Part shown: positions 2,950 to 54,616 of the stretch, in pieces
How the letters are laid out: each line of letters begins with the position of its first letter
Numbering within the stretch: position 1 is the first letter of the stretch
DNA from: Bacillota bacterium
GTDB lineage: Bacteria; Bacillota; Desulfotomaculia; Desulfotomaculales; JBFMEU01
DNA length: 64,000 bases
NCBI GenBank assembly: GCA_040753155.1
Contig: JBFMEU010000002.1
Location: 5,633-69,632 of the forward strand
Reading direction: 5' to 3'
Translations under genes and position numbers: made by a program
Notes under the pieces: model-generated
What the model was told of the DNA's origin: nothing
Databases searched by the model: none
Seen by the model: the letters and a program-made list of their open reading frames with translations, nothing else

Positions 2950-3146
2950 GATCCGGGCTAAAGTAGCCGGCGCCGGTTCTTCCGGCGCCTTCTCCTTGTG
3001 CTTTTAGTAAAGTAACCGGCCATATGGCCCGGACCGAGGAAAAAAGTATTAAGCCGCGCGCGGTTTTTTGGCCTGCAGTTGTAGAAACAGGGTAATTATG
3101 ATAAAATTTTAAGGTTTTAAAGGTTATTTACTGGGAGGCTTTAAAA

Positions 3147-5630
3147 GTGAAAGACCGTTACGATTTTAAAGATCTTGAGGTCAAGTGGCAGCGCCGCTGG
3201 CATGAAGACAAGCTCTACGAGGCGCCTGATTTTTCCGGCCGGCCCAAGTACTACTGCCTGGAGATGTTTCCTTACCCCTCGGGCAAGCTGCACATGGGTC
3301 ATGTCCGGAATTACTCCATCGGGGATGTGGTGGCCCGGTTTAAAACCATGCAGGGGTTTCACGTGCTGCACCCCATGGGCTGGGACGCCTTCGGGCTGCC
3401 CGCTGAAAACGCCGCCATCAAGCACGGAAACATGCACCCGGCCCAGTGGACCATAGACAATATCAACACCATGCGCGATCAGCTCAAGCAGCTGGGGATT
3501 AGCTATGACTGGAGCCGGGAGGTGGCCACCTGCCACCCGGGCTACTACAAGTGGACCCAGTGGCTGTTCCTGCAGCTGTACCGCCGCGGCCTGGCCTATA
3601 AAAAGAAGGCGGCCGTGAACTGGTGCCCCTCCTGCGCCACGGTGCTGGCCAACGAGCAGGTAAAGGAGGGTATTTGCGAGCGCTGTAAGACTGATGTGGA
3701 GAAGAAAGAGCTGGAGCAGTGGTTCTTTAAGATCACCGACTACGCCGGGCGTCTGCTGGAGGATTTGGAAACCCTGCCGGGCTGGCCGGAAAAGGTCAAG
3801 ATCATGCAGGAACACTGGATTGGCCGCAGCGAGGGGGCGGAAATCAAATTCACCATTGACGGCCATGACGATGAGTTCATGGTCTTCACCACCCGGCCGG
3901 ACACGGTGTTCGGGGTCACCTATATGGTGCTGGCCCCAGAGCACCCCCTGGTGGAAAAGCTCATTGCGGGCAAGGAGCAGGCCGGTCAGGTGCGGGACTT
4001 TGTAAATAGAGTGCGCAACCTGAGCGAGATTGCCCGGACCTCCGTTGATGCGGAAAAGGAGGGCATCCTCACCGGCGCTTACTGTATTAACCCCCTGAAC
4101 GGCGAAAAAATTCCCATCCTGGTGGCCAACTACGTGCTGCTGGAGTACGGCACCGGCATGGTCATGGGCGTGCCGGCCCACGACCAGAGGGACTTTGAAT
4201 TTGCCCGGAAGTACAAGCTGCCCGTCCGGGTGGTCATCCAGCCCGAGGGTGTGGAACTGGACCCGGAAACCATGACCGGGGCCTGCGACGGCGAGGGGGT
4301 TATGGTTAATTCCGGCCAGTTTAATGGCGTCCCCAGCCAGGAGGGGATCCGCAAGGTTACGGAATACCTGGAGCAAAACAATCTGGGCCGGGGCCTGATC
4401 AACTACCGCCTGCGGGACTGGCTGATTTCCCGGCAGCGTTACTGGGGCGCCCCCATTCCCATTATTTACTGTGATCAGTGCGGCGCCGTACCGGTTCCCG
4501 ATGCCGACCTGCCGGTAATGCTGCCCCTGGAGGTGGCCTTTGAGCCCACCGGCCGCTCGCCCCTGAATGACAGCCCGGAATTTGTCAGCGCCGCCTGCCC
4601 CGGCTGCGGCGGGCCCGGCAGGCGGGAAACCGACACCATGGACACCTTCATGTGCTCCTCCTGGTACTACTACCGCTACACCAGCCCCCGGAACGAGGAG
4701 GCTGCCTGGGGCGGGGAGCAGGTAAAATACTGGCTGCCCGTGGACCAGTACATCGGCGGGGTGGAGCACGCCATCCTGCACCTGCTGTACAGCCGCTTCT
4801 TTACTAAGTTTCTTTATGACGCGGGCCTGATAGACAACCAGGAGCCCTTTACCAACCTGCTCACCCAGGGCATGGTGCTCAAAGACGGGGCCAAGATGAG
4901 CAAGTCCAAGGGCAATGTGGTCAGTCCCGAAGACATCGTGGGCCGCTACGGGGCCGACACCGCCCGGCTGTTCATCCTGTTCGCCGCCCCGCCGGAGCGG
5001 GACCTGGAGTGGAGCGATCAGGGCGTGGAGGGGTGCTACCGTTTCCTGAACCGGGTCTGGCGCCTGGTCCAGCCCCTGGCGGCAACCCTGCAGAGTAGCA
5101 GCGGCAAACCCAACGCCAACCTGGTGGGGGTAAACCGGGAAATGCGCCGGCTGACCCACCTGACCATCAAGAAAGTCACCGGGGACATTGGCAACCGGTT
5201 TAACTTCAACACCGCCGTCAGCGCCATCATGGAGCTGGTCAACGGCCTGTACCAGTACCGGGAGGTGCCGGAAACCGACCGGGACCCGGCGGTTCTCAAG
5301 GAGGCGGTGGAGTCCATGCTGCTCCTGCTGGCCCCCTTCGCCCCCCACGTGACCGAGGAACTGTGGGAGGTCACCGGCGGCGCCGGCAGCATTCACCTCC
5401 GGCCCTGGCCCGGGTTTGACCCGGCGGCCATGGCGGAGGACGAGGTGACCATAGTGGTGCAGATTAACGGCCGGGTCCGGGACCGGGTGCTGGCGCCCGC
5501 CGGCATACCGGCCGAAGAGATGAAGGAGCAGGTCATGGCCCAGCCCAGGGTTCAGGAACTGATTGCCGGCAAGCAGCTGGTCAAGGTCATCCCGGTGCCC
5601 GGGAAGCTGGTTAATATAGTGATTAAGTAA
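3147..5630 (+). CDS. leuS: Leucine--tRNA ligase
   Basis: 827 aa; HMGH ([10 protein letters not shown]) and KMSKS motifs; SD gggagg before GTG. Confidence 0.97.
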
Positions 5631-5819
5631 GAGGAGGCCCCTGCGCATGACGCAGGGGCCTCTAAGGGTATACAGCCGTATGAATGAGCTTTAACTCATG
5701 TTGACAAAACAATTATCTGAATACGGTTTTAAGTTCAACACCCAGCCTGCCTGCCAAATCACTGATTTCCTTGAAGTCGCCGGCAGGCACAAAGATTAGC
5801 GGGCAGGAGTCCTGGATTT

Positions 5820-6041
5820 TTATTTCTGCAGCAGCAGCAGGATATCCTCGCCCTGCTCAGTAACCTCGATCCGCCAGCCCTTGTTTTCGGCCAGCCGGGA
5901 CACGTTTTCCCTGGCCGCCGTGTGGCTGACCAGCACCTTGATGGCGCCGCTGTCCATGGTGTCCATAACCCGCTTGGTCAACAGTACAGGCTCCGGGCAT
6001 AACAGGCCCCGGGCGTCAACTTCCCTTGCCAATGCTCGCAC
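5820..6041 (-). CDS. yedF: TusA/SirA-like sulfurtransferase (short YedF-like partner of YedE)
   Basis: VDARGLLCPEPVLLTK carries the CPxP motif. It overlaps the end of yedE by 26 nt. Confidence 0.7.
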   Translation of the reverse strand: MRALAREVDARGLLCPEPVLLTKRVMDTMDSGAIKVLVSHTAARENVSRLAENKGWRIEVTEQGEDILLLLQK

Positions 6042-7095
6042 CCCCCGTCACGGCCGCCGGCCTGTTCAAGATGCCGATTACGGCCACAGCAAGCATGCCC
6101 AGGATAACCGCCACCTGGCCGGCCACCGGCACACCGGCGGGGCTGGCCGCCAGGCCGAAGTTGTGGGCCACGGCGGCCCCGGCCATGATGCCCATAATGG
6201 TCACGGCGCAGTCGGTGTTCCCCTCCCCGGCGGCCACCAGCTGCCGCAGCGGGCACCCGCCCAGGAGCACAGCGGCCCAGCCGGCCAGGGTCATGCCCAA
6301 AAAGTTCCACAGGCCGTCGGTGTGGGCCACCGGCTGCCCCTCAAACCCGATTTTAAAGGCGCCCACCGCCAGGTTGCCGATCAGGGCCACAATGAAGATG
6401 GCCACAAAGCCGTATAACAGGTGGCCGTCCCGGAAAAAGATGTAGTCCCTGATGCCGCCCACCATGCACAGCCGGGAGCGCTGGGCCATTATACCCACAA
6501 TCAGGCCAGCCCCCAGGGCGATCCAGATGGGCGCCGCCATGGAGCCGGGGCCCTGCTCACTGAAGAAGATGAAGGCCGGCTGGGCCAGCAGCAGAATTAA
6601 CAGGACCACCATCAGGCCGGTAAAAAGGTAGCCGTTGCCCCGCTGCTGGGGTACGGCCCGGCCCAGGGTGAACCCGTTTTTGAGAAACTGTACGCCGATG
6701 AGTACCCCTGCCACCAGGCCGATCAGGCCGACCCCGGCGTTAAGGTCGCCCCCCGCCAGGCGCAGGACGGCCCGCACCGGGCAGCCCAGGAAAACCAGCA
6801 TGCCGATCATGGCAATGAAGCCCAGGATGAACCGGGTGAAGGCGCTGGAGCCCCCCACGGACCTGAATTCTTTGGTGGCCAGGGAGGTAAAAAAGGCCCC
6901 CAGCACCAGTCCGATAATCTCGGGTCTTATGTACTGCACCGGGACCGCCCGTTGGAAGCCCAGGCCGCCGGTAATGTCCCGCAAAAAACAGGCTATGCAG
7001 TAGCCCATGTTGGCGGGGTTGCCCAGCAGCACCAGGATGACCGCCATCAGTCCCAGGGTCCCCCCGGCAGCAAGAATCAATAACCGCTTACTCAA
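6016..7095 (-). CDS. yedE: YeeE/YedE family membrane protein (selenium/thiosulfate-related transporter)
   Basis: GNPANMGYCIACFLRDITGGLGF and a second LCMVGGIRD half-repeat; polytopic. I place the start at TTG 7095 (SD gaggggg). The ORF track extends to 7176, across the tRNA. Confidence 0.8.
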   Translation of the reverse strand: MSKRLLILAAGGTLGLMAVILVLLGNPANMGYCIACFLRDITGGLGFQRAVPVQYIRPEIIGLVLGAFFTSLATKEFRSVGGSSAFTRFILGFIAMIGMLVFLGCPVRAVLRLAGGDLNAGVGLIGLVAGVLIGVQFLKNGFTLGRAVPQQRGNGYLFTGLMVVLLILLLAQPAFIFFSEQGPGSMAAPIWIALGAGLIVGIMAQRSRLCMVGGIRDYIFFRDGHLLYGFVAIFIVALIGNLAVGAFKIGFEGQPVAHTDGLWNFLGMTLAGWAAVLLGGCPLRQLVAAGEGNTDCAVTIMGIMAGAAVAHNFGLAASPAGVPVAGQVAVILGMLAVAVIGILNRPAAVTGGASIGKGS

Positions 7096-7120
7096 AAAAT
7101 AATACCCCCTCGAAATGATA

Positions 7121-7217
7121 TGGAGGGGAGAAGTCGGAGTCGAACCGGACTCCCGCCTGGATCGCAGACAGGCCAACGGGTTTGCAGCCCGCGGGGGCCA
7201 CCGGACCCTTTCTCCCC
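7121..7217 (-). tRNA. tRNASec-like tRNA with cysteine identity (anticodon GCA, discriminator U73, 8-bp acceptor stem, long extra arm)
   Basis: Minus-strand sequence: GGGGAGAAAGGGTCCGGTGGCCCCCGCGGGCTGCAAACCCGTTGGCCTGTCTGCGATCCAGGCGGGAGTCCGGTTCGACTCCGACTTCTCCCCTCCA. Acceptor GGGGAGAA/TTCTCCCC. Anticodon loop CTGCAAA. Extra arm GCCTG/CAGGC. T loop GGTTCGACTCC. CCA is encoded. Confidence 0.8.
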
Positions 7218-8306: not shown

Positions 8307-8843
8307 TCACAATTTATGGTCAGGTACTAATAATTTAATTGCCTCAGTCATCTTTTTCATCCCGCCGGGACCAAGGGAAAGGGCAGTTTCCACCATACTG
8401 TCCAGGAGTCGGTAGAAATCCTGCAGCTCTTTTAAACGCGCCATTATGGTATCCCTCTCCGGTGTTGGTTCCGCCCGGCTGGCAAGCCCTATGCTTTCCT
8501 CCACCAAATCAAAGGATTCTTGGAATTCCGGTTTGTGCCGCAAGGCCAGTACCGAGTGAGCTATTTTCCAGAAATCAGTCTCCGGCTCGAAATAAACCCG
8601 GCGGTCACCAATTTTATGCAGGCGCCTGACCATGCCAAGTTGCTCCAACTGGCGTATTGCCACACTAATATTTCCCTTGGTCACCTTTATCCTTTTGGCT
8701 ACCTCTTCCAGGGACAAAGGCTCTGCGCCCAGGTATAGTACGGCATACATTTCCCCTGCGGTTTTACCCAGCCCCCAGAAGGCGCTTTGCCTTCCCAGGG
8801 CCTGGACCAGAATGTCCCGGGAGCTGGACAGCTGGTTATCCAT
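8307..8843 (-). CDS. GbsR/MarR-family winged-helix transcriptional regulator
   Basis: VAKRIKVTKGNISVAIRQLEQLGMVRRLHKIGDRRVYFEPETDFWKI. Start taken at ATG 8843 (MDNQL); the ORF track starts at 8915. Confidence 0.7.
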   Translation of the reverse strand: MDNQLSSSRDILVQALGRQSAFWGLGKTAGEMYAVLYLGAEPLSLEEVAKRIKVTKGNISVAIRQLEQLGMVRRLHKIGDRRVYFEPETDFWKIAHSVLALRHKPEFQESFDLVEESIGLASRAEPTPERDTIMARLKELQDFYRLLDSMVETALSLGPGGMKKMTEAIKLLVPDHKL

Positions 8844-9058
8844 GTTTAACACTCCTGAATCAAATCGTTTAGAACGTTCTAAACGAAGTATAATATATGT
8901 GCTCCTTAATGTCAATTTACCATAGCAATCTTGTAAAAGAAAAAGCCCCTTAGGGGCCAGTTGTATTAAAAACTCTTGGTAAGTGTAAAATAAACTTTAC
9001 ATTAGGGGTGCGAACAATTATAATGTAAAGTAAGCTTTACATGGGAGGTGGTGCTTCA

Positions 9059-9277
9059 TTGAATAATCACGTCAAAGACCTCAGGGGCAAGTTCAGCTTA
9101 ACCCAGGAGCAGCTGGCCGCCAGGTTGGGGGTGTCGCGCCAGACGATCATTTCGATAGAGTCGGGGAAATACAACCCGTCACTAATCCTGGCGTATAAGC
9201 TGGCCAGAATCTTTCAATGCACAATCGAAGATGTATTTGATTTTTCCGGTATAGAGGAGGATTTTGCAGATGAATAA
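9059..9277 (+). CDS. XRE-family HTH transcriptional regulator (YozG-like)
   Basis: FSLTQEQLAARLGVSRQTIISIESGKYNPSL. SD gggaggtgg precedes TTG 9059; ATG 9041 is an alternative. Upstream inverted repeats ctttacat/atgtaaag are a possible operator. Confidence 0.8.
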   Translation: MNNHVKDLRGKFSLTQEQLAARLGVSRQTIISIESGKYNPSLILAYKLARIFQCTIEDVFDFSGIEEDFADE

Positions 9278-9659
9278 AACCTTTCTTAAAGAAATGATTT
9301 GGACCAACTATCTGGTTATCGGTGGCTTTGCTGCCATGCTGGTGGCCGCCAATTTGTATTATGGCTCCTCTCCGGAGACCTGGCTGCGAACCATGCCCAT
9401 AGCATTGATTCTAATCCCGGCCTTGATAATCAAGTTATGGCGCATTAAGAAAAGAAGCAAGGACCTGGATGAGCGGATTGAGTATATTACCCGCCGCGCC
9501 TTATCCGTGGGATTTTACTTCTTACTGGCGGTGATACTCTGGTACTACACCAAGGAAATGGCACTATACGGTGAAATATCCACCCGAACTTATGTCGAGC
9601 TATTTGCCGGTTTAATTGGGTATGTAGGGAGTCTGTTTATTTTTCGCAGAATTTATTGA
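9264..9659 (+). CDS. Small membrane protein, overlapping partner of the HTH regulator
   Basis: 131 aa, about 4 TM segments, 14-nt overlap with the upstream gene. Confidence 0.6.
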   Translation: MQMNKTFLKEMIWTNYLVIGGFAAMLVAANLYYGSSPETWLRTMPIALILIPALIIKLWRIKKRSKDLDERIEYITRRALSVGFYFLLAVILWYYTKEMALYGEISTRTYVELFAGLIGYVGSLFIFRRIY

Positions 9660-9692
9660 GCCTGAACTGGTAGTATTTAGTCCTGACAGGCC

Positions 9693-10250
9693 TTAACCCC
9701 CCGGATACTGTTCGTCCGGTTCGTCGTGCAGGTAAAAGCTGGCCTCCAGACTTCTTTGGTCCAGGTTGTAAATGTTATGTATGATGGTTCACCATGGCAG
9801 GGGAATGGGCAGGGGTTCTGTGAAAGAGCCGGCGTCCAAAAAGACCCGGGTGTTGGTTTCCCTGATGAACCGTGAAGTAAAACTTCTCTGGTTATGATTA
9901 ATTAAATCACTCAGGGTCCGGTACCGGTTATAAAAGCAGCCCTTGTCCGCACTGACCCGGGGGATGTCAGCACTGCACTGATAGCGGTGCAGTAAGAAGT
10001 TGGTTACCACCAGTGGTGAATCATTACCTTCAATGATATACTCCCTGTTGTGGGCGTGGGAATACTCCCAGACAAAGGAGTACCCGTGGCGGTCGGCCAC
10101 CAGCAGGTGCACCGGGGCCAGGGCATAGAAGTGTTTGTGTCCATTCCATAGGCAGCGGCAATCCCCTGCATACGCTGGTGGCAAATGGGGTAGTTTCTTT
10201 CCAGTTCAGGAATTGCCTTTGTTTAAGCAAAGGAACTTTTCTATTGTTTA
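9693..10250 (-). pseudogene. Decayed Ntn-hydrolase gene (C45 / linear amide C-N hydrolase-like)
   Basis: APVHLLVADRHGYSFVWEYS... is a C-terminal-half motif only. The upstream part is frameshifted (RMQGIAAAYGMD in another frame). An in-frame TGA at 9789-9791 is followed by 31 more in-frame codons. Confidence 0.45.
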
Positions 10251-10925: not shown

Positions 10926-11169
10926 TCAATTTTGATACTTGCTCCAAAACCTCGGCCCAGGTATTGGGCTCCACCATGCGCAGGCGCCTGTCCCTGATCC
11001 GGTAATCCACCCCCGGAATAGCTTTTTTATACAGTACGCCGGGGCCGTTACCTTTACCAGACGGTACAGCCCCAGGACATTGCGGGGCCCCAGATTGCTG
11101 TCCACCTCGGAGGAATAAATCCAGATCAGCCGGGGCAGTTTGACGACGGTGGAGGGGGTGAGCAAGTTA
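10926..11169 (-). pseudogene. Truncated, frameshifted duplicate of the 3' end of the LCP-like gene at 13106-13879
   Basis: Roughly 85-90% nucleotide identity, by eye, to 13106-13345. The similarity stops exactly at the A2 junction (gagcaagtt|agccc). Confidence 0.8.
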
Positions 11170-11285
11170 GCCCTTTGAAACCCGCATCTGTAGGCGGCGG
11201 GTTTCAAAGGGCGGTTAAGTCCAGTATGGACTCGGCTAACATTCAGAGGGGGTTGAATCCCTCTCTGAATGAAGTCTCGTTCAAC
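11170..11285 (+). mobile_element. A element copy A2 (5'-truncated)
   Basis: ...gggcggttaagtccagtatggactcggctaacattcagagggggttgaatccctctctgaatgaagtctcgttcaac, directly followed by H-element sequence catggcgtttccgaag. Confidence 0.8.
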
Positions 11286-12862: not shown

Positions 12863-12997
12863 TTTATCACTGAACTAATCCGCCCTAAGACCCCCGCCTC
12901 TGTAGGCGGCGGGTTTCAAAGGGCGGTTAAGTCCAGTATGGACTCGGCTAACATTCAGAGGGGGTTGAATCCCCCTCTGAATGAAGTCTCGTTCAAC
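12863..12997 (+). mobile_element. A element copy A3 (full length)
   Basis: TTTATC-actgaactaatccgccctaagaccc...ggcggttaagtccagtatggactcggctaacATTCAGAGGGGGttgaatCCCCCTCTGAATgaagtctcGTTCAAC. Confidence 0.85.
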
Positions 12998-16597: not shown

Positions 16598-16832
<235 letters not shown>

Positions 16833-16896: not shown

Positions 16897-17238
16897 TTAT
16901 GTTCCTGGTGAAAAGGTTGGGTTCTTAGCTTGGGCTTCCTTATCTTTTACGTGCAGCAGGGTTTCACATTGGGGGCACTGGTAGGTGCCAATGTGTCTGA
17001 CCACCCTGTTTTCATTGCCGCAGGCGGGGCAGCGCAGGTTGGTAACTTCGAAAACGGAGCCCTGAACCAGCAGGAAAAATCCAAAAATACCAGCAATAAG
17101 TCCAATGATCGGCGGCGGTACATTAAGTAGAGCGCCTACTCCCACCGTAAGCAGAATAGCTCCGGTGATAATTAGGATCCGGAATGCCTCCAGCATGATT
17201 TCCAAGCCCTTTGATTTGACCTCACCGGGACGTGCCAA
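16897..17238 (-). CDS. Membrane protein with C-terminal zinc-ribbon (CPAC...CPQC)
   Basis: Two TM segments, then RCPACGNENRVVRHIGTYQCPQCETLL. Confidence 0.55.
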   Translation of the reverse strand: MARPGEVKSKGLEIMLEAFRILIITGAILLTVGVGALLNVPPPIIGLIAGIFGFFLLVQGSVFEVTNLRCPACGNENRVVRHIGTYQCPQCETLLHVKDKEAQAKNPTFSPGT

Positions 17239-17358: not shown

Positions 17359-17751
17359 TCAGAGAAAGCCCCTTTTTTTGCGCCAGTAGTGTATATACTC
17401 CTCATAAAGGAGGCCTCCCGGCTTCCAGTCCCGCTCAGTTTGCGCCTCGGTTTTATAGGTTTCCGTCCACAAGCCGAACTCCGCTTGCACGGCCTCCCGT
17501 ACCTGCTGATCCTGCTCCTGGTTGGTATAAACACACAGCACCGAAAGTTTCCGGTACGGGCACGGGTCAACCCCGGGATCTTTGTTGACGAACTTGGCCA
17601 TGGGGAATTTACCTGCATCGGCCAGCTCTTTCAGCCTGTCCTGGATGGCTCTGAATGTTTGGGCCTCACCCTCGTAAATCCACTTGCCGGCGACATTCCG
17701 GTTGTAGTTTTGGCCGTAAATGTAAGTCCATATTTGTCCCCGCTTAATCAT
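17359..17751 (-). CDS. Hypothetical protein, possibly Bles03/DUF1917-like
   Basis: GKWIYEGE...LSVLCVYTNQEQDQQVREAV...TYKTEAQT resembles the GKW / vicVYT / YKxDxxT pattern of that family. This is from memory only. Confidence 0.4.
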   Translation of the reverse strand: MIKRGQIWTYIYGQNYNRNVAGKWIYEGEAQTFRAIQDRLKELADAGKFPMAKFVNKDPGVDPCPYRKLSVLCVYTNQEQDQQVREAVQAEFGLWTETYKTEAQTERDWKPGGLLYEEYIHYWRKKRGFL

Positions 17752-17869
17752 GCAAAAAAATCTCCCCCGGGGGTATTTTATCAGGTTATATGATAACTAT
17801 ATATTCATTCGACATAAAATCTGTTAACTCCTGCCGCAGATTTTAATGTATCCAGTAGGCCCCGGGAAA

Positions 17870-18169
17870 CTAGGTCAGCCGCAATAGCAGCAGGCCGCAG
17901 GCTGCGGTAAGCAGTATGTTCCAGGCCAGCAAGACCAAAATCCTGCTTTGTAATCCGGCCCGGTAGTTTTTTTCTTGCTGCAGGCTGCCGGTCAGCCGGC
18001 TTATTTCATCCCTTGCCCCGGCCAGGGCTGTTGACAGCCGCTGATCCAGCTGGCCGACTTTAGCGTCCAGGTCCTGCAGCCTGGCCTCGGCGGGATGCAC
18101 CAGTTTGCGGCGGATGGAATCGGCCAGGGATTTTATAACCTCGCTGTTTTGTTGTTCCGCCGGAACCAT
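17870..18169 (-). CDS. Coiled-coil protein with C-terminal TM anchor (paralog 3 of 3)
   Basis: SIRRKLVHPAEARLQDLDAKVGQLDQRL...; C-terminal ILVLLAWNILLTAACGLLLLRL. 2-nt gap to the upstream gene. Confidence 0.6.
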   Translation of the reverse strand: MVPAEQQNSEVIKSLADSIRRKLVHPAEARLQDLDAKVGQLDQRLSTALAGARDEISRLTGSLQQEKNYRAGLQSRILVLLAWNILLTAACGLLLLRLT

Positions 18170-18171
18170 AT

Positions 18172-18471
18172 TTACCTGTCCCCCCCGCTGCCGGTTTGGT
18201 TAATGGCATCCCGGATGGCTGCCAGCACCAGCATTGGAGTTTGCTCAACCTTTTGCTCCAGCTCGGCCACCCGGTTTTTTAGTGTTTCCATTTCCAGGGC
18301 CTGCTGTTCCTTTAATTCCCGCAGGGAGCGGTCCAGCTTGCGGTTTTCCTCCAGGATGGGGTGTACAAACTTTTGTTTCAGCCCGGTTAAAATGTCCCGC
18401 ATTAAAATCTGGGCCGCATCTTTCCTGTCATCGTTGGTTGCAGGGGATGATTGTCTGAGTTCCATAAACAT
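18172..18471 (-). CDS. Coiled-coil protein (paralog 2 of 3)
   Basis: GLKQKFVHPILEENRKLDRSLRELKEQQALEMETLKNRVAELEQKVEQ; SD aaggaggg. Confidence 0.6.
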   Translation of the reverse strand: MFMELRQSSPATNDDRKDAAQILMRDILTGLKQKFVHPILEENRKLDRSLRELKEQQALEMETLKNRVAELEQKVEQTPMLVLAAIRDAINQTGSGGDR

Positions 18472-18480
18472 GTCCCTCCT

Positions 18481-18675
18481 TTATAATTTATCCAGAGCCT
18501 GCTTGATTGTTGTTAACGTGCGCAGGGTGTTTTGCTGGTTTTGTTCCCACGCCAGCTGCTGCCAGCGCGCCTCCAGGTCTTTCAGCAGGTCAGCCTTTAT
18601 TTCACCGCCGGTGTGGCGGCTGATCTCTTTGATAATCCGGCGCAGTCTTTCCTCCAGCAGGCGTGCGTTTTCCAT
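18481..18675 (-). CDS. Small coiled-coil protein (paralog 1 of 3)
   Basis: 64 aa. SD aaggaggt overlaps the stop of the GTPase gene, suggesting translational coupling. Confidence 0.55.
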   Translation of the reverse strand: MENARLLEERLRRIIKEISRHTGGEIKADLLKDLEARWQQLAWEQNQQNTLRTLTTIKQALDKL

Positions 18676-18684
18676 GGCTCATCT

Positions 18685-21030
18685 TTACCTCCTTGGTGTG
18701 CCGGGTGTAGTTTTCACCTCTCCCAGGCGCCTTTCCAGGCGCCCCAATTCAGCCAGGCAGGCAGTTGTTTTTTGGCCGGCCGGCCTTTGTTCCAGCGCCT
18801 CCCGGAGATCTTTAAGCACTCCGGCCAGGGGCGCGGCCAGTTGTGAACCGGCTGCAAGCCGGATTGCCTCAATCAGGTGACGGAAGTCCTTGTCCCGGGG
18901 ATTTACGGATGCCCGGCGGGCCGAGAGGAAGAATAACCGCTCGTCGGCGCGGAGTGTGGTCGGGGATAGGCTCTCCCGGATGTAGTTCCTGACTTTTTCC
19001 CTTTCCCGGGGGCTCAGGGTGTCAGCAAAATTGATCACCAGCATGAGCCGGGCCGGGCCCTGCTGCAGGCTGCCGCCGCCCGGCCCCTGCCGGATTAGCC
19101 GGCTCAGGGCCGGCAGTTGGTCCCGGTCGGCGGTGTTCAGCACGTGCCTGGCGTTTAAGAAAAACAATACTGACTGGTCCCCCTTGTTGAACGAGATTTC
19201 ATTCAGAGGGGGATTCAATCCCCTCTGAATGTTAGCCGGGTCCATACTGGACTTAACCGCCCTTTGAAACCAGCTGCCTGCAGAGGCCGGGGTCTTAGGG
19301 CGGATTAGTTCAGTGATAAAACTTGAGGTTGTTTCCCGGTGCCTGCGGTGAACCGAGTCCAGGCCCGGTGTGTCAATCAGGACCAGGCCGCTCAGCAGTT
19401 CCGAGGGATGGGTGATTTCAACCCGGCTCAGCCGGAAGCTGTCCGGCCAGGCCAGGTGGCGTACGAGGGCCAGTTTGCCGGCGGCGGTATCCAGGCTCAG
19501 GGTTAAGGTATTTTCCTCCCGGAAGGTAACCTGGACGGCAACCGGCAAATCGGCGGTTATTCTTGTGGCCGGAACCGCCTGAAACAGGGTGGGCGCCGTG
19601 TTTAGCCCCGGCTGCCCGGCCAGGCCGGCGGCAAAGAGCCGGGCGGCGCTGTGGAGTTGATTCAGCAGTTGGTATTTACTTACCTTCTTGCGGCCGGCCT
19701 GGCTAATCAGCTCCAGACGGCCCAGCTCAGGCCCGGACTCCGGCTTCCCCAGCCAGCCGGTAAGAGCCTTGACTTCCTCCCGGCAGTACAGGGCCGCTTC
19801 TCCGTCCAGATGGATAACCGGCACGTCAATCTGCAGCGGATAGTGGAGGGTGGCCTGTTTAACCTGACCCTGCCTGACCCGGGTCAGGCAGGAGGTGGTG
19901 GGGCCGTCTCCGGTGGGCAGGATTTCCTCACCCAGCATGACGTTGATAAAAGTTGTCTTGCCGGAGGAAAAGCCCCCGGCTATAGTCACTGGAAATGCCC
20001 CTTGCTCCAGCCGGCGCCTCAGGGCGTCAGCTTGCCCGGTGGCCGGCAGGCCGGTCATTGAAGGGTCGGCGCAGAACCGGTCCAGCAGCTCCAGCAGGGA
20101 CCGCCTTACCTGGATCAGGCCCTTATTGGCCTGGTCCGGGTGGGCCGGCGGCTGATATTTCAGCCGGCCCTCCCGGGCCGGGCCGCTCAGGTTGCGGCGG
20201 GCGGCAATTCTGGCCCCGGCCCGGGACTGCAGGAGTTCCCCGGCCTGTAAAATTGAGGCCGCCCTTTGCTTGAGGTCCCATAAATCAGCCAGGAACTCCA
20301 GGTCGCCGGGCCGGGCCAGGGTGGTCTTCAGGGCTTTGGGGATAGCCTCGTCCATAGTCCGCAAATTCCGGTTGAGTTCCTCAATCCGGCGGGCGGCTGC
20401 CTCCACTTCCAGCAGGGTGCGCAGGGAGTTTACAGCTGCAGGGTTGGTAATGTCAATGGCCAAGGGCTGCAAGCCGGCTTTGAAAATTTGCCGCAGGCAG
20501 GCTGCGGTAACCCCCGGGGCAGAGTCGTCCGGATGGCCGGTGTTATGATTCAAGATGAAAATAATGTCCCGGGGATTAATTTGGCGCCGCCGGGCCAGTT
20601 CCTCCAGAAACTGCTTGCCGGCATTATCAAGGCCCCGCTGGTGCAAAAGGAAGAGCGCCAAATCGGCGCCGGCCGCCGCCTCCATGGCGGCCGCCCGGTG
20701 CTCCGGGCTGGTGTCGAAGCCAGGTGTGTCCAAGAGCAGGCACTTTTGCAGCAGCCTGCAGGGCAGAGCCACCTCCCGTACCCTCCGGGCGCGGGCCGGG
20801 CCGGAGACGGCGGGGCCATAAACATACTTGACAGTCACCATGGTGGTGGGAACCACATCCACTGGTGCGACATAATTTTCCAGCAGGGCGTTAATTAAAG
20901 TGGATTTGCCGGCGTTATAGGGGCCGGCAACAGCCACCGTCGGCAGGCGGACTCCGGCAGGCCAGTTCTCCAGCAGCATGTCCGCCTGGCGAATAAAGTT
21001 TTCTGCCGCCGTCATGGTATATACCTCCAA
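18685..21030 (-). CDS. Tandem-GTPase dynamin-like protein (BDLP/DynA-like), carrying an in-frame A-element insertion
   Basis: Module 1: G1 GPYNAGKST and G3 DTPGFD. Module 2: G1 GGFSSGKTT, G2 region PTGDGPTTSCLT, G3 DTPGLDS and NFAD. 781 aa. Confidence 0.75.
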   Translation of the reverse strand: MEVYTMTAAENFIRQADMLLENWPAGVRLPTVAVAGPYNAGKSTLINALLENYVAPVDVVPTTMVTVKYVYGPAVSGPARARRVREVALPCRLLQKCLLLDTPGFDTSPEHRAAAMEAAAGADLALFLLHQRGLDNAGKQFLEELARRRQINPRDIIFILNHNTGHPDDSAPGVTAACLRQIFKAGLQPLAIDITNPAAVNSLRTLLEVEAAARRIEELNRNLRTMDEAIPKALKTTLARPGDLEFLADLWDLKQRAASILQAGELLQSRAGARIAARRNLSGPAREGRLKYQPPAHPDQANKGLIQVRRSLLELLDRFCADPSMTGLPATGQADALRRRLEQGAFPVTIAGGFSSGKTTFINVMLGEEILPTGDGPTTSCLTRVRQGQVKQATLHYPLQIDVPVIHLDGEAALYCREEVKALTGWLGKPESGPELGRLELISQAGRKKVSKYQLLNQLHSAARLFAAGLAGQPGLNTAPTLFQAVPATRITADLPVAVQVTFREENTLTLSLDTAAGKLALVRHLAWPDSFRLSRVEITHPSELLSGLVLIDTPGLDSVHRRHRETTSSFITELIRPKTPASAGSWFQRAVKSSMDPANIQRGLNPPLNEISFNKGDQSVLFFLNARHVLNTADRDQLPALSRLIRQGPGGGSLQQGPARLMLVINFADTLSPREREKVRNYIRESLSPTTLRADERLFFLSARRASVNPRDKDFRHLIEAIRLAAGSQLAAPLAGVLKDLREALEQRPAGQKTTACLAELGRLERRLGEVKTTPGTPRR
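19186..19320 (-). mobile_element. A element copy A4, inserted in frame (135 nt = 45 codons) in the dynamin-like gene
   Basis: gttgaacgagatttcATTCAGAGGGGGattcaatCCCCTCTGAAT...ggcggattagttcagtGATAAA. It is translated as ...LIRPKTPASAGSWFQRAVKSSMDPANIQRGLNPPLNEISF... Confidence 0.85.
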
Positions 21031-21096
21031 TTGGTTATACTGTTATATATTTACTGTGATCAGGCTGTAAATATACCGAAAATAGTTACCCGCTTG

Positions 21097-21241
21097 GTAA
21101 CTATTCAGGAGTCGGGAGTCAGGAGTCGGGAGTCAGGAGTCGGGAGTCAGAAGTCAGGAGTCAGAAGTCAGGAGTCAGGAGTCAGAATGAGAAAACCGGC
21201 GAAAACATTACTTCTGAATTCTGAATACCTGAATAAGTAAC
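21097..21241 (+). repeat. H element copy H6 (minimal: 11 heptamers, 8 codons, 3' arm)
   Basis: gtaactattc-(aggagtc/gggagtc/agaagtc)x11-agaatgagaaaaccggcgaaaacatt-acttctgaattctgaatacctgaataagtaac. Confidence 0.9.
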
Positions 21242-21335: not shown

Positions 21336-21474
21336 ATAAAGAAGACTTGGTTCAGGTGGAGTTTTAACCCATACGTTGGGGACATTCCTGTCCTCAGAGA
21401 AATACCCAAGCTTCAGCAGGTGTGTCCCCTTTCCTTATGCGAGGGCGGGGTCTTACAGGCTGTGCGAAGATAAA
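21336..21474 (+). repeat. C element copy C1
   Basis: ataaaGAAGACTTGGTTCAGgtggagttttaacccatacgttGGGGACAttcctgtcctcagagaaatacccaagcttcagcaggtgTGTCCCCtttccttatgcgagggcggggtCTTACAGGCTGTGCGAAGATAAAg. Confidence 0.85.
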
Positions 21475-21536
21475 GCTTTACGGCGCTGTGCCGGAAAGCT
21501 CTTGCCCAGGAAAGACTGCGAAAGAAGGTGAGTCCA

Positions 21537-24527: not shown

Positions 24528-24756
24528 GATAAAGAAGACTTGGTTCAGGTGGGGTTTTAACCCATACGTTGGGGACATTCCTCCGAAGGAGGTGTGTCCC
24601 CTACCCGCTAAACCTTAGTCGCACTTATTTCGAGCTTACAGCCTGTTAATCCCATTAGTTGGGGACATTCCTGTCCTCAGAGAAATACCCAAGCTTCAGC
24701 AGGTGTGTCCCCTTTCCTTATGCGGTGGCGGGGTCTTACAGGCTGTGCGAAGATAA
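24528..24756 (+). repeat. C element copy C2 (double-module version)
   Basis: Module 1 contains GGGGACAttcctccgaaggaggtgTGTCCCC. An internal cttacagcctgt then leads to module 2, GGGGACAttcctgtcctcag...caggtgTGTCCCC. Ends cttacaggctgtgcgaaGATAAA. Confidence 0.85.
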
Positions 24757-24757
24757 A

Positions 24758-24866
24758 CCGCAAGTACGAACAGGTTCGTCTTCTGCCATACCAGTAATCC
24801 TCAAACGTTTTCGCTGGTTTTCTCATTCTGACTCCTGATTCCTGACTTCTGACTCCTGAGTAGTTA
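24758..24866 (-). repeat. H element copy H7 (5' half only, truncated at the TTTATC site by C2)
   Basis: The reverse complement reads gtaataactactc(aggagtc..)agaatgagaaaaccagcgaaaacgtttgaggattactggtatggcagaagacgaacctgttcgtacttgcgg|tttatc. Confidence 0.85.
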
Positions 24867-24927
24867 TTACGTTTAAACATATTCAGAGCTCGTACACCTT
24901 TATGACGGCGCCCCTGGATTATTTTTC

Positions 24928-24984
24928 TTGACATATTGTTCAATAGTTGATAAATAAGTAATTAGTGCAGGTAGGAATAATTAC
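24928..24984 (+). promoter_or_regulatory. Promoter plus inverted-repeat operator (candidate Zur box) upstream of zur
   Basis: TTGACA 24928-24933, 17-nt spacer, TAAATA 24951-24956, then GTAATTA-N13-TAATTAC at 24958-24984. Confidence 0.45.
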
Positions 24985-33721: not shown

Positions 33722-33732
33722 AGTAGTACATC

Positions 33733-33850
33733 TCCGCCCTAAGACCCCCGCCTCTGTAGGCGGCGGGTTTCAAAGGGCGGTTAAGTCCAGTATGAACTCG
33801 GCTAACATTCAAAGGGGGTTGAATCCCCCTCTGAATGAAGTCTCGTTCAA
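33733..33850 (+). mobile_element. A element copy A5 (5'-truncated); contains the stop codon of the MCP gene
   Basis: ccgccctaagacccccgcctctgtaggcggcgggtttcaaagggcggttaagtccagtatgaactcggctaacattcaaagggggttgaatccccctctgaatgaagtctcgttcaa. Confidence 0.8.
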
Positions 33851-35682: not shown

Positions 35683-36043
35683 TCAGAAGTCAGAAGTCAG
35701 AAGTCAGAAGTCAGGAGTCAGGAGTCAGGAGTCAGAATGAGAAAACCAGCGAAAACATCTGAAGATTTACTGGTATGGCGGAAGTCTTAATAGGCGCCTG
35801 TTTGCACTTGCGGTTCAACGTTTATCACTGAACTAATCCGCCCTAAGACCCCCGCCTCTGTAGGCGGCGGGTTTCAAAGGGCGGTTAAGTCCAGTATGGA
35901 CTCGGCTAACATTCAGAGGGGGTTGAATCCCCCTCTGAATGAAGTCTCGTTCAACCATTGCAAGAGGTTAGTAAATTGCTGGAAGCATATTCTCGGGGCA
36001 TTCTGAATCCTGACTTCTGAATTCTGAATACCTGAATAGTAAC
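35683..36043 (+). repeat. H element copy H8, interrupted by A element A6
   Basis: (agaagtc/aggagtc) array, then agaatgagaaaaccagcgaaaacatctgaagat...cttgcggttcaacgTTTATC[A6]cattgcaagagg...ggaagcatattctcggggcattctgaatcctgacttctgaattctgaatacctgaatagtaac. Confidence 0.9.
35821..35955 (+). mobile_element. A element copy A6 (full length, nested in H8)
   Basis: tttatcactgaactaatccgccctaagaccc...ctctgaatgaagtctcgttcaac. Same sequence as A3. Confidence 0.9.
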
Positions 36044-48852: not shown

Positions 48853-49803
48853 GTGATCTTAATGCGCAAGCTGTTAGTTGGATTGACCCTGCTAATCATA
48901 GCAATCTATTTTAGCCACCCCTACCTGGTCAACTGGCTGGGCGGGCAATTTGTCCGCCAGGCCGGGCCGGAAATTAAACTGTACCTGCACGAGGAAGACA
49001 GAATAATTGAACTGCCCCTGGAAGAATACCTGGTGGGGGTGGTGGCGGCGGAAATGCCGGCCGGGTTTCCCGCCGAGGCGCTGAAGGCCCAGGCCGTGGC
49101 GGCCAGGACCTACGTCATGAAGCGGGTTAACGGCGGCGGGGTGAGCAATTCCCTGCACTCCGGAGCCCATGTGTGTGACGACCACCGGCATACCCAGGCC
49201 TGGATTTCCCGGGAAGAAATGCGCGAGCGCTGGGGGATGCTGCGCTATTACGACTACTACTACAAGATCCGCCGGGCGGTGGACGAAACCGCCGGCGAGG
49301 TGATTGTTTACCAGGGGGACCTGATCGACCCGGTTTACCACTCCTCCTGCGGCGGGCACACCGAAAACTCGGAGGATGTCTGGAAGTTTGCCATTCCCTA
49401 TTTGCGGAGTGTTGCCTGCCCTTACAACGCCGACCCCAATCCGGAGCGCACCGCCGGCTTTAGCCCGGCCCAGCTGGATCAAGCCCTGGGCACAAGCCTG
49501 GTTGCGGTGCCGGCGCTCAGTAAGGCCTTGGAGGTAACCGAGCGCACCTCCACCGGCCGGCCCAAAACCGTGCGCCTGGGTGATCAGACAATGCCGGCCA
49601 CTGTTGTCCGGGAGCGGCTGGGCCTGCGGTCCACCAACTTCACCTGGGACCTGGACGGCGACAACATAACCTTTGCCACCACCGGCTACGGCCACGGGGT
49701 GGGGCTGTGCCAGTACGGCGCCAAGGGCCTGGCCCAAAAAGGCGGCGACTACCGTGAAATCCTGACCCACTACTACACCGGCGTAAGCATCGTCAAGCAG
49801 TAA
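48853..49803 (+). CDS. spoIID: Stage II sporulation protein D
   Basis: LEEYLVGVVAAEMPAGFPAEALKAQAVAARTY...YHSSCGGHTE. Confidence 0.9.
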   Translation: MILMRKLLVGLTLLIIAIYFSHPYLVNWLGGQFVRQAGPEIKLYLHEEDRIIELPLEEYLVGVVAAEMPAGFPAEALKAQAVAARTYVMKRVNGGGVSNSLHSGAHVCDDHRHTQAWISREEMRERWGMLRYYDYYYKIRRAVDETAGEVIVYQGDLIDPVYHSSCGGHTENSEDVWKFAIPYLRSVACPYNADPNPERTAGFSPAQLDQALGTSLVAVPALSKALEVTERTSTGRPKTVRLGDQTMPATVVRERLGLRSTNFTWDLDGDNITFATTGYGHGVGLCQYGAKGLAQKGGDYREILTHYYTGVSIVKQ

Positions 49804-49913
49804 AAAAGCAGCCTGACCACTTTCTGCAATTATGCCATTAAAAGTTCAACACGGCATAAATAGTCAGGTAAATGGCCACAATATACCTATATGCAAAAAT
49901 GGAGGTGTAAAAA

Positions 49914-50750
49914 ATGTGGCCGTTTAACGATAATCTGCGCAATCAAGACGGCGGGAGCAAATACCGGGAATGGCTCCGGCGCTGGCTGCTGAGTGGCTGG
50001 TTCCGCTATGTGGCAGTGGGAACCCTGGCGCTGATATTGGTAACCAGCCTGATCTGGGCCGCGGTGATGACCTGGGGGCCGGCCGGAGTGATCAAAACTA
50101 TCCCGGAACTGCCGGTGGTGGAAGATTTTGATCCGCAGGTACCGGCGGACTCCATCCTGGACCGGTTGGATGACGCCCTGGACAACACAGGCGCAGAGGA
50201 GCAGCCGCCCAACAGTACGGCAGTGGATGTGCCGCCCGAACTCCCGGCCCCGGCCCCGGACCCCGCGGACAACCCCGGGTTGAAGGGCCCCGCGGACAGA
50301 TCCGTGCCTGAGCCGGGTGCTCCGCCTGCGGAGGATACGACGGCAGCCGGCATTCGGGCGGGATCCATGGAGAAGCCGCTGGCCGGGGAGCAGTCGGCCG
50401 GCTACGGCCTGGTATTTTCCGAGAACTTTGGTGATTACCGGTTCAACCCCGGCCTGGACCTGGTGGCTGAGGCCGGTACCGCCGTCAAGGCCGCCCTGGA
50501 GGGACGGGTCAAATCCGTCACCAGGCAGCCCTACCAGGGCTACACGGTGATCCTGGACCACGGCGCCGGCTGGACCACCACCTACGCCGGCCTGGAAACC
50601 GTAAAGGTGGAAGAAAACCAGGCAGTGCAGACCGGCGCCCTGCTGGGTATGCTCCAGGCCCATGACCATGACGGTCTGCAGGGCAGACTGCAATTTGTTA
50701 TGGCCCGCAACGGCGAACCCGTAGACCCGGAGCCTTATTTACTGGATTAG
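49914..50750 (+). CDS. spoIIQ: SpoIIQ-like membrane protein with degenerate LytM/M23 domain
   Basis: N-terminal TM, Pro-rich linker. In the M23 core, the HxxxD His is replaced (NPGLDL). Position between spoIID and spoIIID. Confidence 0.6.
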   Translation: MWPFNDNLRNQDGGSKYREWLRRWLLSGWFRYVAVGTLALILVTSLIWAAVMTWGPAGVIKTIPELPVVEDFDPQVPADSILDRLDDALDNTGAEEQPPNSTAVDVPPELPAPAPDPADNPGLKGPADRSVPEPGAPPAEDTTAAGIRAGSMEKPLAGEQSAGYGLVFSENFGDYRFNPGLDLVAEAGTAVKAALEGRVKSVTRQPYQGYTVILDHGAGWTTTYAGLETVKVEENQAVQTGALLGMLQAHDHDGLQGRLQFVMARNGEPVDPEPYLLD

Positions 50751-50887
50751 ACACATAAAAGACACGCGAAAGACAAAGAGAAAAGTATGCCCTTTTTGTG
50801 GTATTGTTAATTCGCTAAAACAACCATACCAGATAAGGAGCATACTTTTTTTATGATTATAGCATACGAACCGTTCCCGTGTCTTTA

Positions 50888-52237: not shown

Positions 52238-52580
52238 GTTATCACATAATTATACATATTTCACGTTAATAAATCACATTTTTATATATATAGTATACCC
52301 AACTGACTATCAAAAAGTCAATACATCACAAAAAAGACCTGGGAACGGTTCTTAAAGGGTTCAATTAGAAGTTTTGCGTAAAATAAGGCTCAAATACCAG
52401 GTAACCCCTGGCATTTGAGCAACAGCCTCATACATGGTAATTATCGGATTCAGTTAAAACAGTCTTTACGATTCTTGTAAGAGGATATAATATCGGCGAT
52501 CACATTTATGTAAATTTTTTGCTCTAGACGAACCACTATAACAAGCCCACTGTTCAAGTAAACAGTGGGCTGGAAAATAA

Positions 52581-52602
52581 GGGGACGGTTTAACCGTCCC
52601 CC
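52581..52602 (-). terminator. Short D-type hairpin acting as terminator of the DUF4127 gene
   Basis: ggggacggtttaaccgtcccc. On the minus strand it is followed by ttatttt. Confidence 0.55.
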
Positions 52603-52608
52603 TGTCTT

Positions 52609-54228: not shown

Positions 54229-54247
54229 TCCCTGAAAAAGATATTTG

Positions 54248-54448: not shown

Positions 54449-54616
54449 GATACTTGTCATATTTCGCGCCGGGCGCCCTGGATACCTGCCGGGAAAAGCA
54501 GCCTGTCCCCCTTATTTCCAATTGATGTTTACCAGTTCAGCGAATTAATTGCGGCCTGGCGCATATACATTTATTAGCTTAAATCCAAGCCCCAATAGAT
54601 TCGGGGAGGTAAGGCG

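Follow-up and report, generated by a model that had tools for sequence, protein, structure and literature searches.

We analysed a stretch of 64,000 nucleotides (hereafter the window) from an assembly of a Desulfotomaculia bacterium of the phylum Bacillota (GCA_040753155.1, contig JBFMEU010000002.1, positions 5,633 to 69,632). Its minus strand carries an operon of four genes, encoding a two-headed dynamin-like GTPase followed by three small proteins, here called s64, s99a, and s99b. The genes are separated by 9, 9, and 2 nt, respectively; AAGGAGGT straddles the stop codon of the GTPase gene, and AAGGAGGG comes after that of s64. An earlier note, made from the letters of the DNA alone, had described four packed minus-strand genes with gaps of 2-9 nt, and we found the open reading frames (ORFs) where it had placed them. 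All the GTPase motifs it had listed are present too (GPYNAGKST, DTPGFD, GGFSSGKTT, PTGDGPTT, DTPGLDS, and NFAD).

Two of the gene starts deserve revision. The TTG listed as the start of the GTPase overlaps the ribosome-binding site, and translation almost certainly begins instead at the ATG of position 21015, judging from the sequence context, because it lies 8 nt after GGAGG and because the GTPases of a 98% relative (P0001) and of a 67% relative (P0002) begin there, with MTAAEN at the equivalent methionine. Nevertheless, the residue numbers of the GTPase are counted throughout from the TTG at 21030. The gene of s99a probably starts at its second ATG (18465), which gives a protein of 97 aa, since an identical protein in the databases (P0056) starts at this position.

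Conservation of the four-gene module

In a scan using one genome per species, we identified the GTPase in 66 species-level genomes, all of them from Desulfotomaculia-type Bacillota. They comprise Pelotomaculum, Desulfofundulus, Desulfovirgula, Desulfoscipio, Desulfallas, Desulfotruncus, Sporotomaculum, Syntrophopropionicum, and further metagenome-assembled genomes. The order GTPase, s64, s99a, s99b on a single strand is kept in 65 of the 66 loci, and the lone exception runs into the edge of a contig; for s99b, this count was reached after iteration of the profiles. Recurrence of the same order in so many related loci is far beyond what chance would give. No further neighbouring gene is common to more than 27 of the 66 loci, and the module is therefore made of these four genes. 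A search with the GTPase protein returned about 27 full-length relatives, with identities from 28 to 98%, whose most informative name was "dynamin family protein". The cluster is limited to one class, which consists of spore-forming anaerobes, and its subfamilies track the taxonomy of their hosts.

All four genes are under purifying selection, with ratios of non-synonymous to synonymous substitution rates (dN/dS) between 0.08 and 0.31. In the comparison with a 67% relative (L079) the values are 0.28 for the GTPase, 0.17 for s64, 0.31 for s99a, and 0.30 for s99b, and in that with a 46% relative (L002) they are 0.25, 0.08, and 0.20 for the first three genes. The earlier note had suggested looking for conservation of the neighbourhood across genomes, and had said that its absence, or a lack of coding signal in the small ORFs, would speak against the module. 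The arrangement turns out to be nearly universal among the carriers of the GTPase, and the small ORFs evolve as protein-coding genes under constraint.

The sizes of the proteins vary in one subclade, formed by Desulfoscipio, Desulfallas, Desulfotruncus, and Sporotomaculum. There, the GTPase measures some 920-945 aa and ends in an extra C-terminal stretch of ~150 aa with a CPSC motif (proteins P0008, P0020, and P0027; loci L004, L007, L009, L014-L016, L019-L021, L040, and L049), and the s64 orthologue has 60 aa. The coordinates of the features of the window copy are given in Table 1.

Table 1. Features of the operon and of the dispersed repeat, in window coordinates
Feature	Position	Strand	Description or basis
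GTPase gene, listed ORF	18685-21030	-	781 aa counted from TTG
GTPase gene, preferred start (almost certain)	18685..21015	-	776 aa from ATG at 21015
Shine-Dalgarno sequence GGAGG for ATG 21015	21024..21028	-	sequence read; starts of P0001/P0002
G domain 1	20455..20940 (aa 31-192)	-	G1 GPYNAGKST, G2 T63, G3 DTPG, HQRG family motif
G domain 2	18904..19995 (aa 346-709)	-	G1 GGFSSGKTT, G2 T378-T379, G3 DTPGLD, G4 NFAD
In-frame repeat copy	19186..19320	-	135-nt two-hairpin dispersed repeat, adds about 43 aa
s64 gene	18481-18675	-	64 aa, soluble
s99a gene	18172-18471	-	99 aa, soluble long-helix protein
s99b gene	17870-18169	-	paralogue of s99a, transmembrane helix at C-terminal end
s99b C-terminal transmembrane segment	17876..17947 (aa ~75-98)	-	SRILVLLAWNILLTAACGLLLLRL; Kyte-Doolittle
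Promoter-like region	21045..21076	-	GTATATT 21076-21070 / TTTACA 21071-21066, then AAATATAT 21052-21045
Repeat copy	12863-12997	+
Repeat copy	35821-35955	+
Repeat copy	2719-2852	-
Repeat copy (in GTPase gene)	19186-19320	-
Repeat copy	33726-33850	+
Repeat copy	11167-11285	+

The two-headed GTPase and the three small proteins

The Pfam family Dynamin_N (PF00350) matches the GTPase with 109.6 bits (cutoff 27, E 2.2e-31) in four stretches spread over both halves, and MMR_HSR1 matches its first head (5.5e-16). The best match by sequence in the PDB is the bacterial dynamin-like protein (DLP) BDLP of Nostoc (2j68), followed by mitofusins. The two halves are homologous to each other when compared profile to profile with hhalign (probability 99%, E 7e-18), and hence the GTPase is an internal duplication of a dynamin-like unit. 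We built an AlphaFold2 model of the protein from an alignment of 27 sequences (mean predicted local distance difference test, pLDDT, of 77.6; predicted template modelling score of 0.65). In this model, head 1 is followed by four predicted helices (aa 197-343), and head 2, which contains a beta-rich insertion at aa 392-541, is followed by a terminal helical hairpin (aa 714-774). Foldseek matched the model to Campylobacter DLP1/DLP2, to the minimal GTPase domain (MGD) of SynDLP, to BDLP, and to mini-mitofusin, with E-values from 1e-12 to 1e-10; the whole set of matches, which includes EHD and IniA, spans 1e-12 to 1e-8. The helical neck, or bundle signalling element, that accompanies the G domain across the dynamin superfamily is present in the predicted model, which Foldseek aligned with the mitofusin and SynDLP MGDs. 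The G domain and the neck place the GTPase in this superfamily, and the earlier note was right to read the large protein as a tandem dynamin-like GTPase.

The nucleotide-binding motifs are well conserved. The motif positions of G domain 1 are kept in 60-65 of 65 orthologues, and G1-G3 of both heads together with the NFAD of head 2, which we take to be the same kind of G4 motif as that of mitofusin, in 57-65 of them. The G4 region of head 1 is non-canonical but conserved (N161-x-N163-x-G-x-x-D168). What canonical DLPs have and this protein, according to its model, is lacking is a trunk or stalk and a membrane element in the same chain. Only about 150 and about 70 helical residues are predicted behind G domains 1 and 2, and a search for a paddle or transmembrane-like segment, defined as any 19-residue window with a Kyte-Doolittle mean of 1.6, was negative in all 65 orthologues. 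In effect, the modelled protein resembles two MGDs of the mitofusin/BDLP type fused together with short helical necks.

The three small proteins are annotated in databases merely as hypothetical, and neither they nor the 130-aa ORF found just downstream of them have matches above noise in Pfam, NCBIfam, PADLOC, or PHROGs. Weak resemblances to the coiled-coil proteins CdvA, Med4, RacA, and ZorA were disregarded as noise. The three proteins define new, orphan families, each a separate orthologous family. Two of them are nonetheless related: when the families of s99a and s99b were built separately and aligned with hhalign, the probability was 97.3% (E 2.3e-11), and iterated profiles started from either protein gather exactly two ORFs per locus and nothing else. 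A search with the single sequence of s99a gave only five matches, one of which bears the automatic JGI name "phasin", which was not reproduced by Pfam. The two families share the block L..(G/S)(L/I)K.K.V.P, to which the earlier note had drawn attention. In s99a this reads DILxGLKxKxVxP, and its C-terminal PLxxLAAIRDAINQ is strongly conserved at the place where s99b has its transmembrane helix. This helix is found in 64 of the 65 members of s99b, beginning 18-28 residues from the C-terminus (19-residue mean of at least 1.6), as the earlier note had seen for the window copy. Its position at the end of the protein makes it a tail anchor.

AlphaFold2 predicts s99a as a single helix of 82 residues (aa 13-94; pLDDT 86, above 90 over most of its length). 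Such a helix would be about 12 nm long, as is usual for chains that depend on a partner in a coiled coil. We searched for heptads using a crude test that compares the hydrophobicity of a/d positions with that of shuffled sequences. By this measure, the median z is 2.0 in the s99a family (window copy 2.8, p 0.007, over aa 48-75, i.e. some four heptads) and 1.95 in the s99b family (window copy 1.7, p 0.06), whereas it is 0.0 in the s64 family, which shows no heptad signal. Accordingly, the statement in the earlier note that s64 is rich in heptads does not hold, and its grouping of the three proteins as paralogues applies to s99a and s99b but not to s64, which is unrelated to either (hhalign probability 1-3%). 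The s64 family has a nearly invariant N-terminus (MENARxLDERLRRII...TGxEIK), comprises 187 clusters at 90% identity and 22 at 50%, has members of 54-87 aa only, and lacks any Pfam domain. An exhaustive profile search among 1.84 billion representatives revealed no fusions and no distant relatives of s64, and hence no "Rosetta stone" clue to its role, and a profile search of the PDB with its alignment returned designed helical proteins only.

How does this set of proteins compare with known systems? The earlier note had likened the GTPase to fused dynamins such as DynA of B. subtilis. The class is indeed the same, since DynA is also a single polypeptide of Bacillota with two homologous dynamin-type G domains that match Dynamin_N, but the GTPase is not an orthologue of DynA: the equivalog NF052648 reaches 56.6 bits for a cutoff of 1600, and only over aa 339-388. 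DynA has about 1190 aa and each of its halves has a full neck, trunk, and paddle, whereas the GTPase has 776 aa and short necks. DynA is not known to have small partner genes dedicated to it. The roles reported for DynA are membrane repair and phage defence (PMC12998192), and sporulation is not among them. The closest neighbours in both structure and sequence are the MGDs of mitofusin, BDLP, and SynDLP (5gns/5gom, 2j68/2j69, and 9em9), which are made of a G domain and a helical bundle. In mitofusin and BDLP, however, the chain that contains the MGD also includes a further helical bundle or heptad repeats, together with a transmembrane segment or paddle. The GTPase has none of these in its chain, and long-helix and transmembrane elements are encoded here by separate genes.

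Bacterial DLPs are typically encoded in pairs, which can be fused, as in DynA, or split, as in LeoB/LeoC (PMC4159319), and they function as heterotypic tethers (PMC6104087). LeoABC (Eleos) and Campylobacter DLP1/DLP2 (5oxf/5owv), the latter being the top Foldseek matches, provide precedents at the level of the operon. Yet, LeoC/LeoB correspond to one canonical DLP of full length that is divided in two, DLP1 and DLP2 are each full-length, and neither system has helical partners of 60-100 aa. A LeoA-like and a LeoBC-like DLP in the same operon, the definition of Eleos, are not found together at this locus. Our search of the literature revealed neither a described operon with a tandem mini-dynamin nor dynamins in the sporulation of Desulfotomaculia. 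Together with the lack of family matches for the small proteins, this agrees with the impression of the earlier note that the four-gene arrangement has not been described.

The copy of the GTPase in the window has a peculiarity that had been missed. Its residues 574-616 (43 residues, window 19183-19311) are an insertion of a repeat element in G domain 2, located in a loop at the surface, after switch II/alpha2 and before beta4. None of the 26 other homologues in the alignment has the insertion, for which disorder is predicted (pLDDT below 50 over aa 577-617). The 98% relative L078 keeps it, with a further in-frame deletion of 15 nt. The repeat has 135 nt and six copies in the window, the one in the GTPase being 92-95% identical to the other five, and folds into two long hairpins (-74.6 kcal/mol, z -8.6). 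It was seen only in this species (window and L078), and a search of the whole window with Rfam returned no family for it. It is short, non-coding, multi-copy, and strongly structured, as is a miniature inverted-repeat transposable element (MITE) or palindromic element. An alignment of the six copies with their flanks showed no clear terminal inverted repeat or target site duplication. The palindromic elements of Rickettsia insert in frame into ORFs, where they add a peptide loop without breaking the frame. The window repeat resembles these elements and MITEs as a short, multi-copy, non-coding hairpin repeat lying in frame within an ORF, but it has no sequence relationship to them. Other copies of the repeat create spurious ORFs containing "...IQRGIQPPLNVSRVHTGL...".

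Promoters of the operon

The aligned upstream regions of the orthologous GTPase genes contain an invariant TAATATAT, with G(T/G)CATA(A/T)(A/T) in front of it at a constant distance. The resulting promoter motif, [G/T]CATA[A/T][A/T]-N14-AATATAT, sits 20-150 nt upstream of the gene. When we scanned 2 Mb of sequence with a position weight matrix (PWM) of the conserved block, the matches were almost only the sites upstream of the GTPase. The sigma factor was classified using two-block PWMs made from experimentally mapped promoters of C. difficile (PMC7438776, Tables S5 and S6). In that species, the sigma-E consensus is tnATAta-N14-cATATAnT, where the -10 element begins with C in 56% of the promoters and with A in 35%, the spoIVA promoter reads GAATATT-N14-AATATAAT, and the consensus is gTAACA-N16-cATAtaaTA for sigma-K and GtATA-N14/15-GnaAAaAATA for sigma-F/G (PMC7438776). 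The sigma-E PWM was the best of the three models in 60 of 67 loci, at a constant site and with a constant spacer of 14 nt. Its score has a median of 17.9 bits at the GTPase loci, to be compared with 16.4 bits for the training promoters. A site of at least 16 bits is found within 200 nt upstream of 53 of 66 GTPase genes, versus 10 of 481 other genes of the same loci.

Two controls support the transfer of the C. difficile model to the Desulfotomaculia clade: the sigma-E PWM picks out the spoIIID promoter of the window (GAATTAA-N13-CATATACA, 14.6 bits) and that of a Coat_F spore-coat gene (17.4 bits). The upstream region of spoIID in the window has no recognisable promoter and was therefore unusable for calibration. 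A hand-written regular expression for sigma-E, which had no match in the window and matched almost only GTPase promoters in the loci, was replaced by the PWMs. Hence, the orthologous family carries what reads as a sigma-E-type promoter, the identity of the sigma factor being putative. We found no transcriptomes mentioning these genes in the literature.

The promoter of the window copy can be aligned with the conserved promoter of 53-60 orthologous loci but departs from its pattern. In the window and its three closest relatives (L078, L079, and L002), the -10-like box is kept as AAATATAT, while the G(C/T)ATA(T/A)T block is shifted upstream by 4 nt. The window region scores 10.4 bits for sigma-E, 10.4 for sigma-K, and 12.1 for sigma-F/G, all near background and none significant. 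The best site of this lineage is sigma-K-like, TTAACA-N16-TATATAACA in L079 (14.9 bits; 10.4 bits in the window). It is possible to read the window promoter as a weak sigma-A promoter, TTTACA-N16-TATATA. The rearrangement must be old, since it is common to relatives across 46% protein identity, and it is compatible with purifying selection on the genes. Taken together with the repeat-derived loop, it makes the expression and the activity of the window copy less certain.

Candidate functions and genomic surroundings

The locus is a self-contained operon of four genes, the most likely product of which is a dynamin-like machine anchored to a membrane. The best account of what this machine might do, to which, with the mechanism proposed below, we assign a probability of roughly 0.45, is that of a mother-cell sporulation complex for membrane remodelling or scaffolding, anchored in trans by s99b: a transmembrane-like segment occurs in 64 of 65 members of s99b versus none of the 65 GTPases. 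In the proposed mechanism, s99b would provide attachment to the membrane through its tail anchor and would pair with s99a as a coiled coil about 12 nm long, forming a stalk in the mother-cell membrane that recruits the GTPase. The invariant, arginine-rich, basic N-terminus of s64 could bind the G domains, for which this protein would act as adaptor or regulator, and nucleotide-dependent dimerisation of the G domains would tether or remodel the membrane. The site of action may be the mother cell early in sporulation, at the engulfing membrane or the outer forespore membrane. This timing is suggested by the near-consensus sigma-E-type promoter that precedes the operon in most members of the family. 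What the sequences show is the structure of the genes, their conservation and purifying selection, the fold class, the paralogy, the tail anchor, and the promoter motif; the formation of a complex, the place and time of expression, and the activity on membranes are inferred.

There are precedents for mother-cell factors of this kind. SpoIVA is a sigma-E-dependent NTPase of TRAFAC origin that is tethered to the outer membrane of the forespore by the small protein SpoVM. The pair SpoIVA-SpoVM, like FisB, resembles the proposed complex as a mother-cell, sigma-E-type factor acting on the forespore membrane, but we detected no relationship in sequence or fold; SpoIVA falls outside the dynamin-like proteins, and FisB is no NTPase. 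The sigma-E-controlled FisB of B. subtilis, a membrane fission factor, is described as the only dedicated fission protein so far known in bacteria (PMC8274934), and no other is known for endospore engulfment or the release of the forespore.

Several observations weigh against a mother-cell membrane complex. The sigma assignment relies on PWMs from a distant Clostridium and on comparative conservation, and the first -10 base is invariantly A at the GTPase loci, which is the minority state (35%) in C. difficile. In the lineage of the window (with L078, L079, and L002), the models for sporulation sigma factors reach only 9.6-14.9 bits, which is not significant. A canonical NKxD motif is missing from head 1, the window GTPase has the 43-aa repeat-derived insertion within its G domain 2, and the comparison of the window with L078 shows 11 substitutions in the GTPase, with a dN/dS of about 1 (from these few substitutions), and zero in the small genes.

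The last of these observations are also what one would expect if the window GTPase were decaying through repeat insertion and promoter rearrangement, in a family that is otherwise functional. An in-frame repeat of 129-135 nt that is predicted to be disordered within a G domain, the substitutions confined to the GTPase, and a sigma-E score of only 10.4 bits all fit with such decay. Yet, the reading frame is open over 776 codons, and the family-invariant residues are intact, if by definition, since the window sequence is among the 27 aligned. The insertion fell in the surface loop alpha2-beta4, and the second, independent indel (15 nt) is also in frame. The rearranged promoter is shared with L079 and L002, which are free of the MITE and have genes under purifying selection. 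Finally, the substitution density of the GTPase (11 per 2331 nt) is no higher than that of the rhomboid gene (4 per 714 nt). With so few substitutions at a similar density, decay is unproven, and we regard it as quite unlikely.

The earlier note had favoured a membrane-surveillance or defence module, and a dynamin for vegetative repair of membrane stress or for protection against phages, like DynA, mycobacterial IniA/C, or LeoABC/Eleos, has some evidence in its favour. The PADLOC models for LeoA and LeoBC match (7.4e-24 and 5e-08), NCBIfam gives a partial match to DynA, a pspC gene and a rhomboid gene lie nearby in the window, and the promoter in this lineage can be read as sigma-A. These matches are restricted to the G domain, though, covering positions 57-171 of 559 in the LeoA profile and falling far short of the cutoff for DynA. 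The PADLOC check that the note had suggested revealed no Leo system: there is no LeoBC-like partner or second DLP gene in the locus, and the three small proteins have no match to Leo components. The neighbours are not mobile or defence genes, save for a SIR2_2 gene in one subclade, and pspC is next to the operon in only one other locus. Also, a sporulation-type promoter in 80% of orthologues points to development rather than defence, as does a cluster confined to a single class. A developmental role at membranes fits better with this distribution, with subfamilies that track host taxonomy, and with near-consensus sigma-E-type promoters in 53-60 of 66-67 loci, and defence thus appears unlikely.

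Within sporulation, the GTPase could alternatively be a morphogenetic scaffold that polymerises on the surface of the forespore, anchored by s99b/s99a, and organises the assembly of coat or cortex, by analogy with SpoIVA. The sigma-E-type promoter of most orthologues is in line with this idea, as are the small membrane-anchoring partners encoded in cis, the adjacent and convergent Coat_F gene of 19 loci, and the fact that head 1 scores as a P-loop of the Era/MMR_HSR1 type without the canonical motif for guanine specificity. But the protein is dynamin-like in class, Pfam SpoIVA_ATPase reaches only E 0.031 on the P-loop, the top Foldseek matches are all membrane-remodelling DLPs, and the adjacency to Coat_F is limited to one subclade, so that we find a pure scaffold improbable. 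We are similarly doubtful of the most specific variant of the mother-cell complex, in which a stalk-less two-headed dynamin, with s99b and s99a as coiled-coil partners of SNARE-like topology and s64 as regulator, would form a sporulation-specific machine for membrane fusion or fission, acting in engulfment or in the release of the forespore in Desulfotomaculia.

A tandem GTPase involved in ribosome assembly, similar to Era or Der, is very improbable. The JGI name "GTPase Era involved in 16S rRNA processing", the MMR_HSR1 match on head 1, and partial NCBIfam matches to Era and Der point in this direction. However, the scores are well below the cutoffs (38.7 versus 237 for Era, 32.7 versus 306.7 for EngA/Der), a KH domain was not identified by Pfam, the Foldseek neighbours of the model are DLPs, with Der ranking only 42nd, and the gene is always coupled to that of a tail-anchored membrane protein.

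The neighbourhoods of the operon contain other genes of interest. In 19 loci, the cluster converges with a Coat_F spore-coat gene (e.g. 9364-9930(-) in L031 and 8547-9113(-) in L024), which has a strong mother-cell-type promoter in L031. A gene for a DUF815 AAA ATPase lies downstream in 20 loci (e.g. 10323-11702 in L040 and 11365-12711 in L004) and has sigma-E-like sites of 15.5-16.5 bits in L014 and L040. The window itself has a cluster of sporulation genes at 48853-56071, with spoIID (48853-49803, Pfam SpoIID) and mreB/mbl (55022-56071). It comprises a SpoIIQ-like M23 gene (49914-50750) behind a sigma-F-type promoter, GCATA-N15-GGCCACAATA, and spoIIID (ATG at 54618) with a sigma-E-type promoter at 54542-54569. 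These genes and promoters indicate that the organism is an endospore former with the canonical logic of sporulation promoters.

Two ORFs close to the operon were considered as core members and rejected. The 130-aa ORF directly downstream (17359-17751(-)) has no Pfam match and recurs, at E 1e-48 or better, in only five other loci (L004, L009, L015, L020, and L021), where it lies downstream of the cluster at a distance of a few kb. In the window it is preceded by a sigma-K-like TTAACA-N16-GAATATATA (17797-17827(-), 14.2 bits), which is not significant alone. The 113-aa ORF between the operon and pspC (16897-17238(-)) has N-terminal transmembrane helices and a C-terminal CxxC...CxxC zinc ribbon (weak match to Zn_ribbon_Com). 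It was counted in only one other locus, and its conservation is limited to the closest relatives (L002 and L078).

The window is also rich in other repeats. Tandem hexanucleotide repeats of the GGAGTCA / CTGACTCC type are found at 498-920, 16673-16795, 21031-21240, 24677-24943, and 54420-54445, and also upstream of the GTPase in L051, L056, and L058. They are intergenic, including those just upstream of the operon promoter, and lie beside whole or fragmentary genes that read like a four-helix-bundle family; the equivalent ORF in L078 matches Pfam 23S_rRNA_IVP. A second repeated intergenic element (21376-21531, 24659-24838, and ~36200) is often beside units of the hexamer repeat. Further away, a tRNA-Sec gene (7125-7217(-), RF01852, 51.1 bits) adjoins an ORF for a membrane protein of the Sulf_transp family (6016-7176). 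An ORF of 835 aa (3141-5648(-)) without Pfam match, in a stretch of high GC and with an odd composition rich in His, Leu, and Gly, may simply mirror, in antisense, a genuine gene of the opposite strand.

Dynamin-like proteins occur widely in bacteria, with physiological roles that are mostly unclear. The operon described here pairs a stripped-down dynamin, in every complete locus, with a tail-anchored long-helix protein, its soluble paralogue, and an orphan third protein. It thereby offers a natural "split" system in which to ask which parts of a dynamin serve attachment to the membrane and which the work driven by nucleotides. The in-frame hairpin repeat within a G domain adds a clean natural case of a mobile repeat tolerated in the core of an enzyme. 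The module is conserved, compact, and experimentally approachable, but confined to a clade without model organisms, and we infer its function from sequence. Its combination with a sigma-E-type promoter makes a concrete, testable link between dynamins and sporulation. If the reading as a fusion or fission machine were true, this would be the first membrane-remodelling system driven by nucleoside triphosphates to be connected with the formation of endospores, and the first case of a dynamin with a stalk and a membrane anchor encoded by genes of their own.

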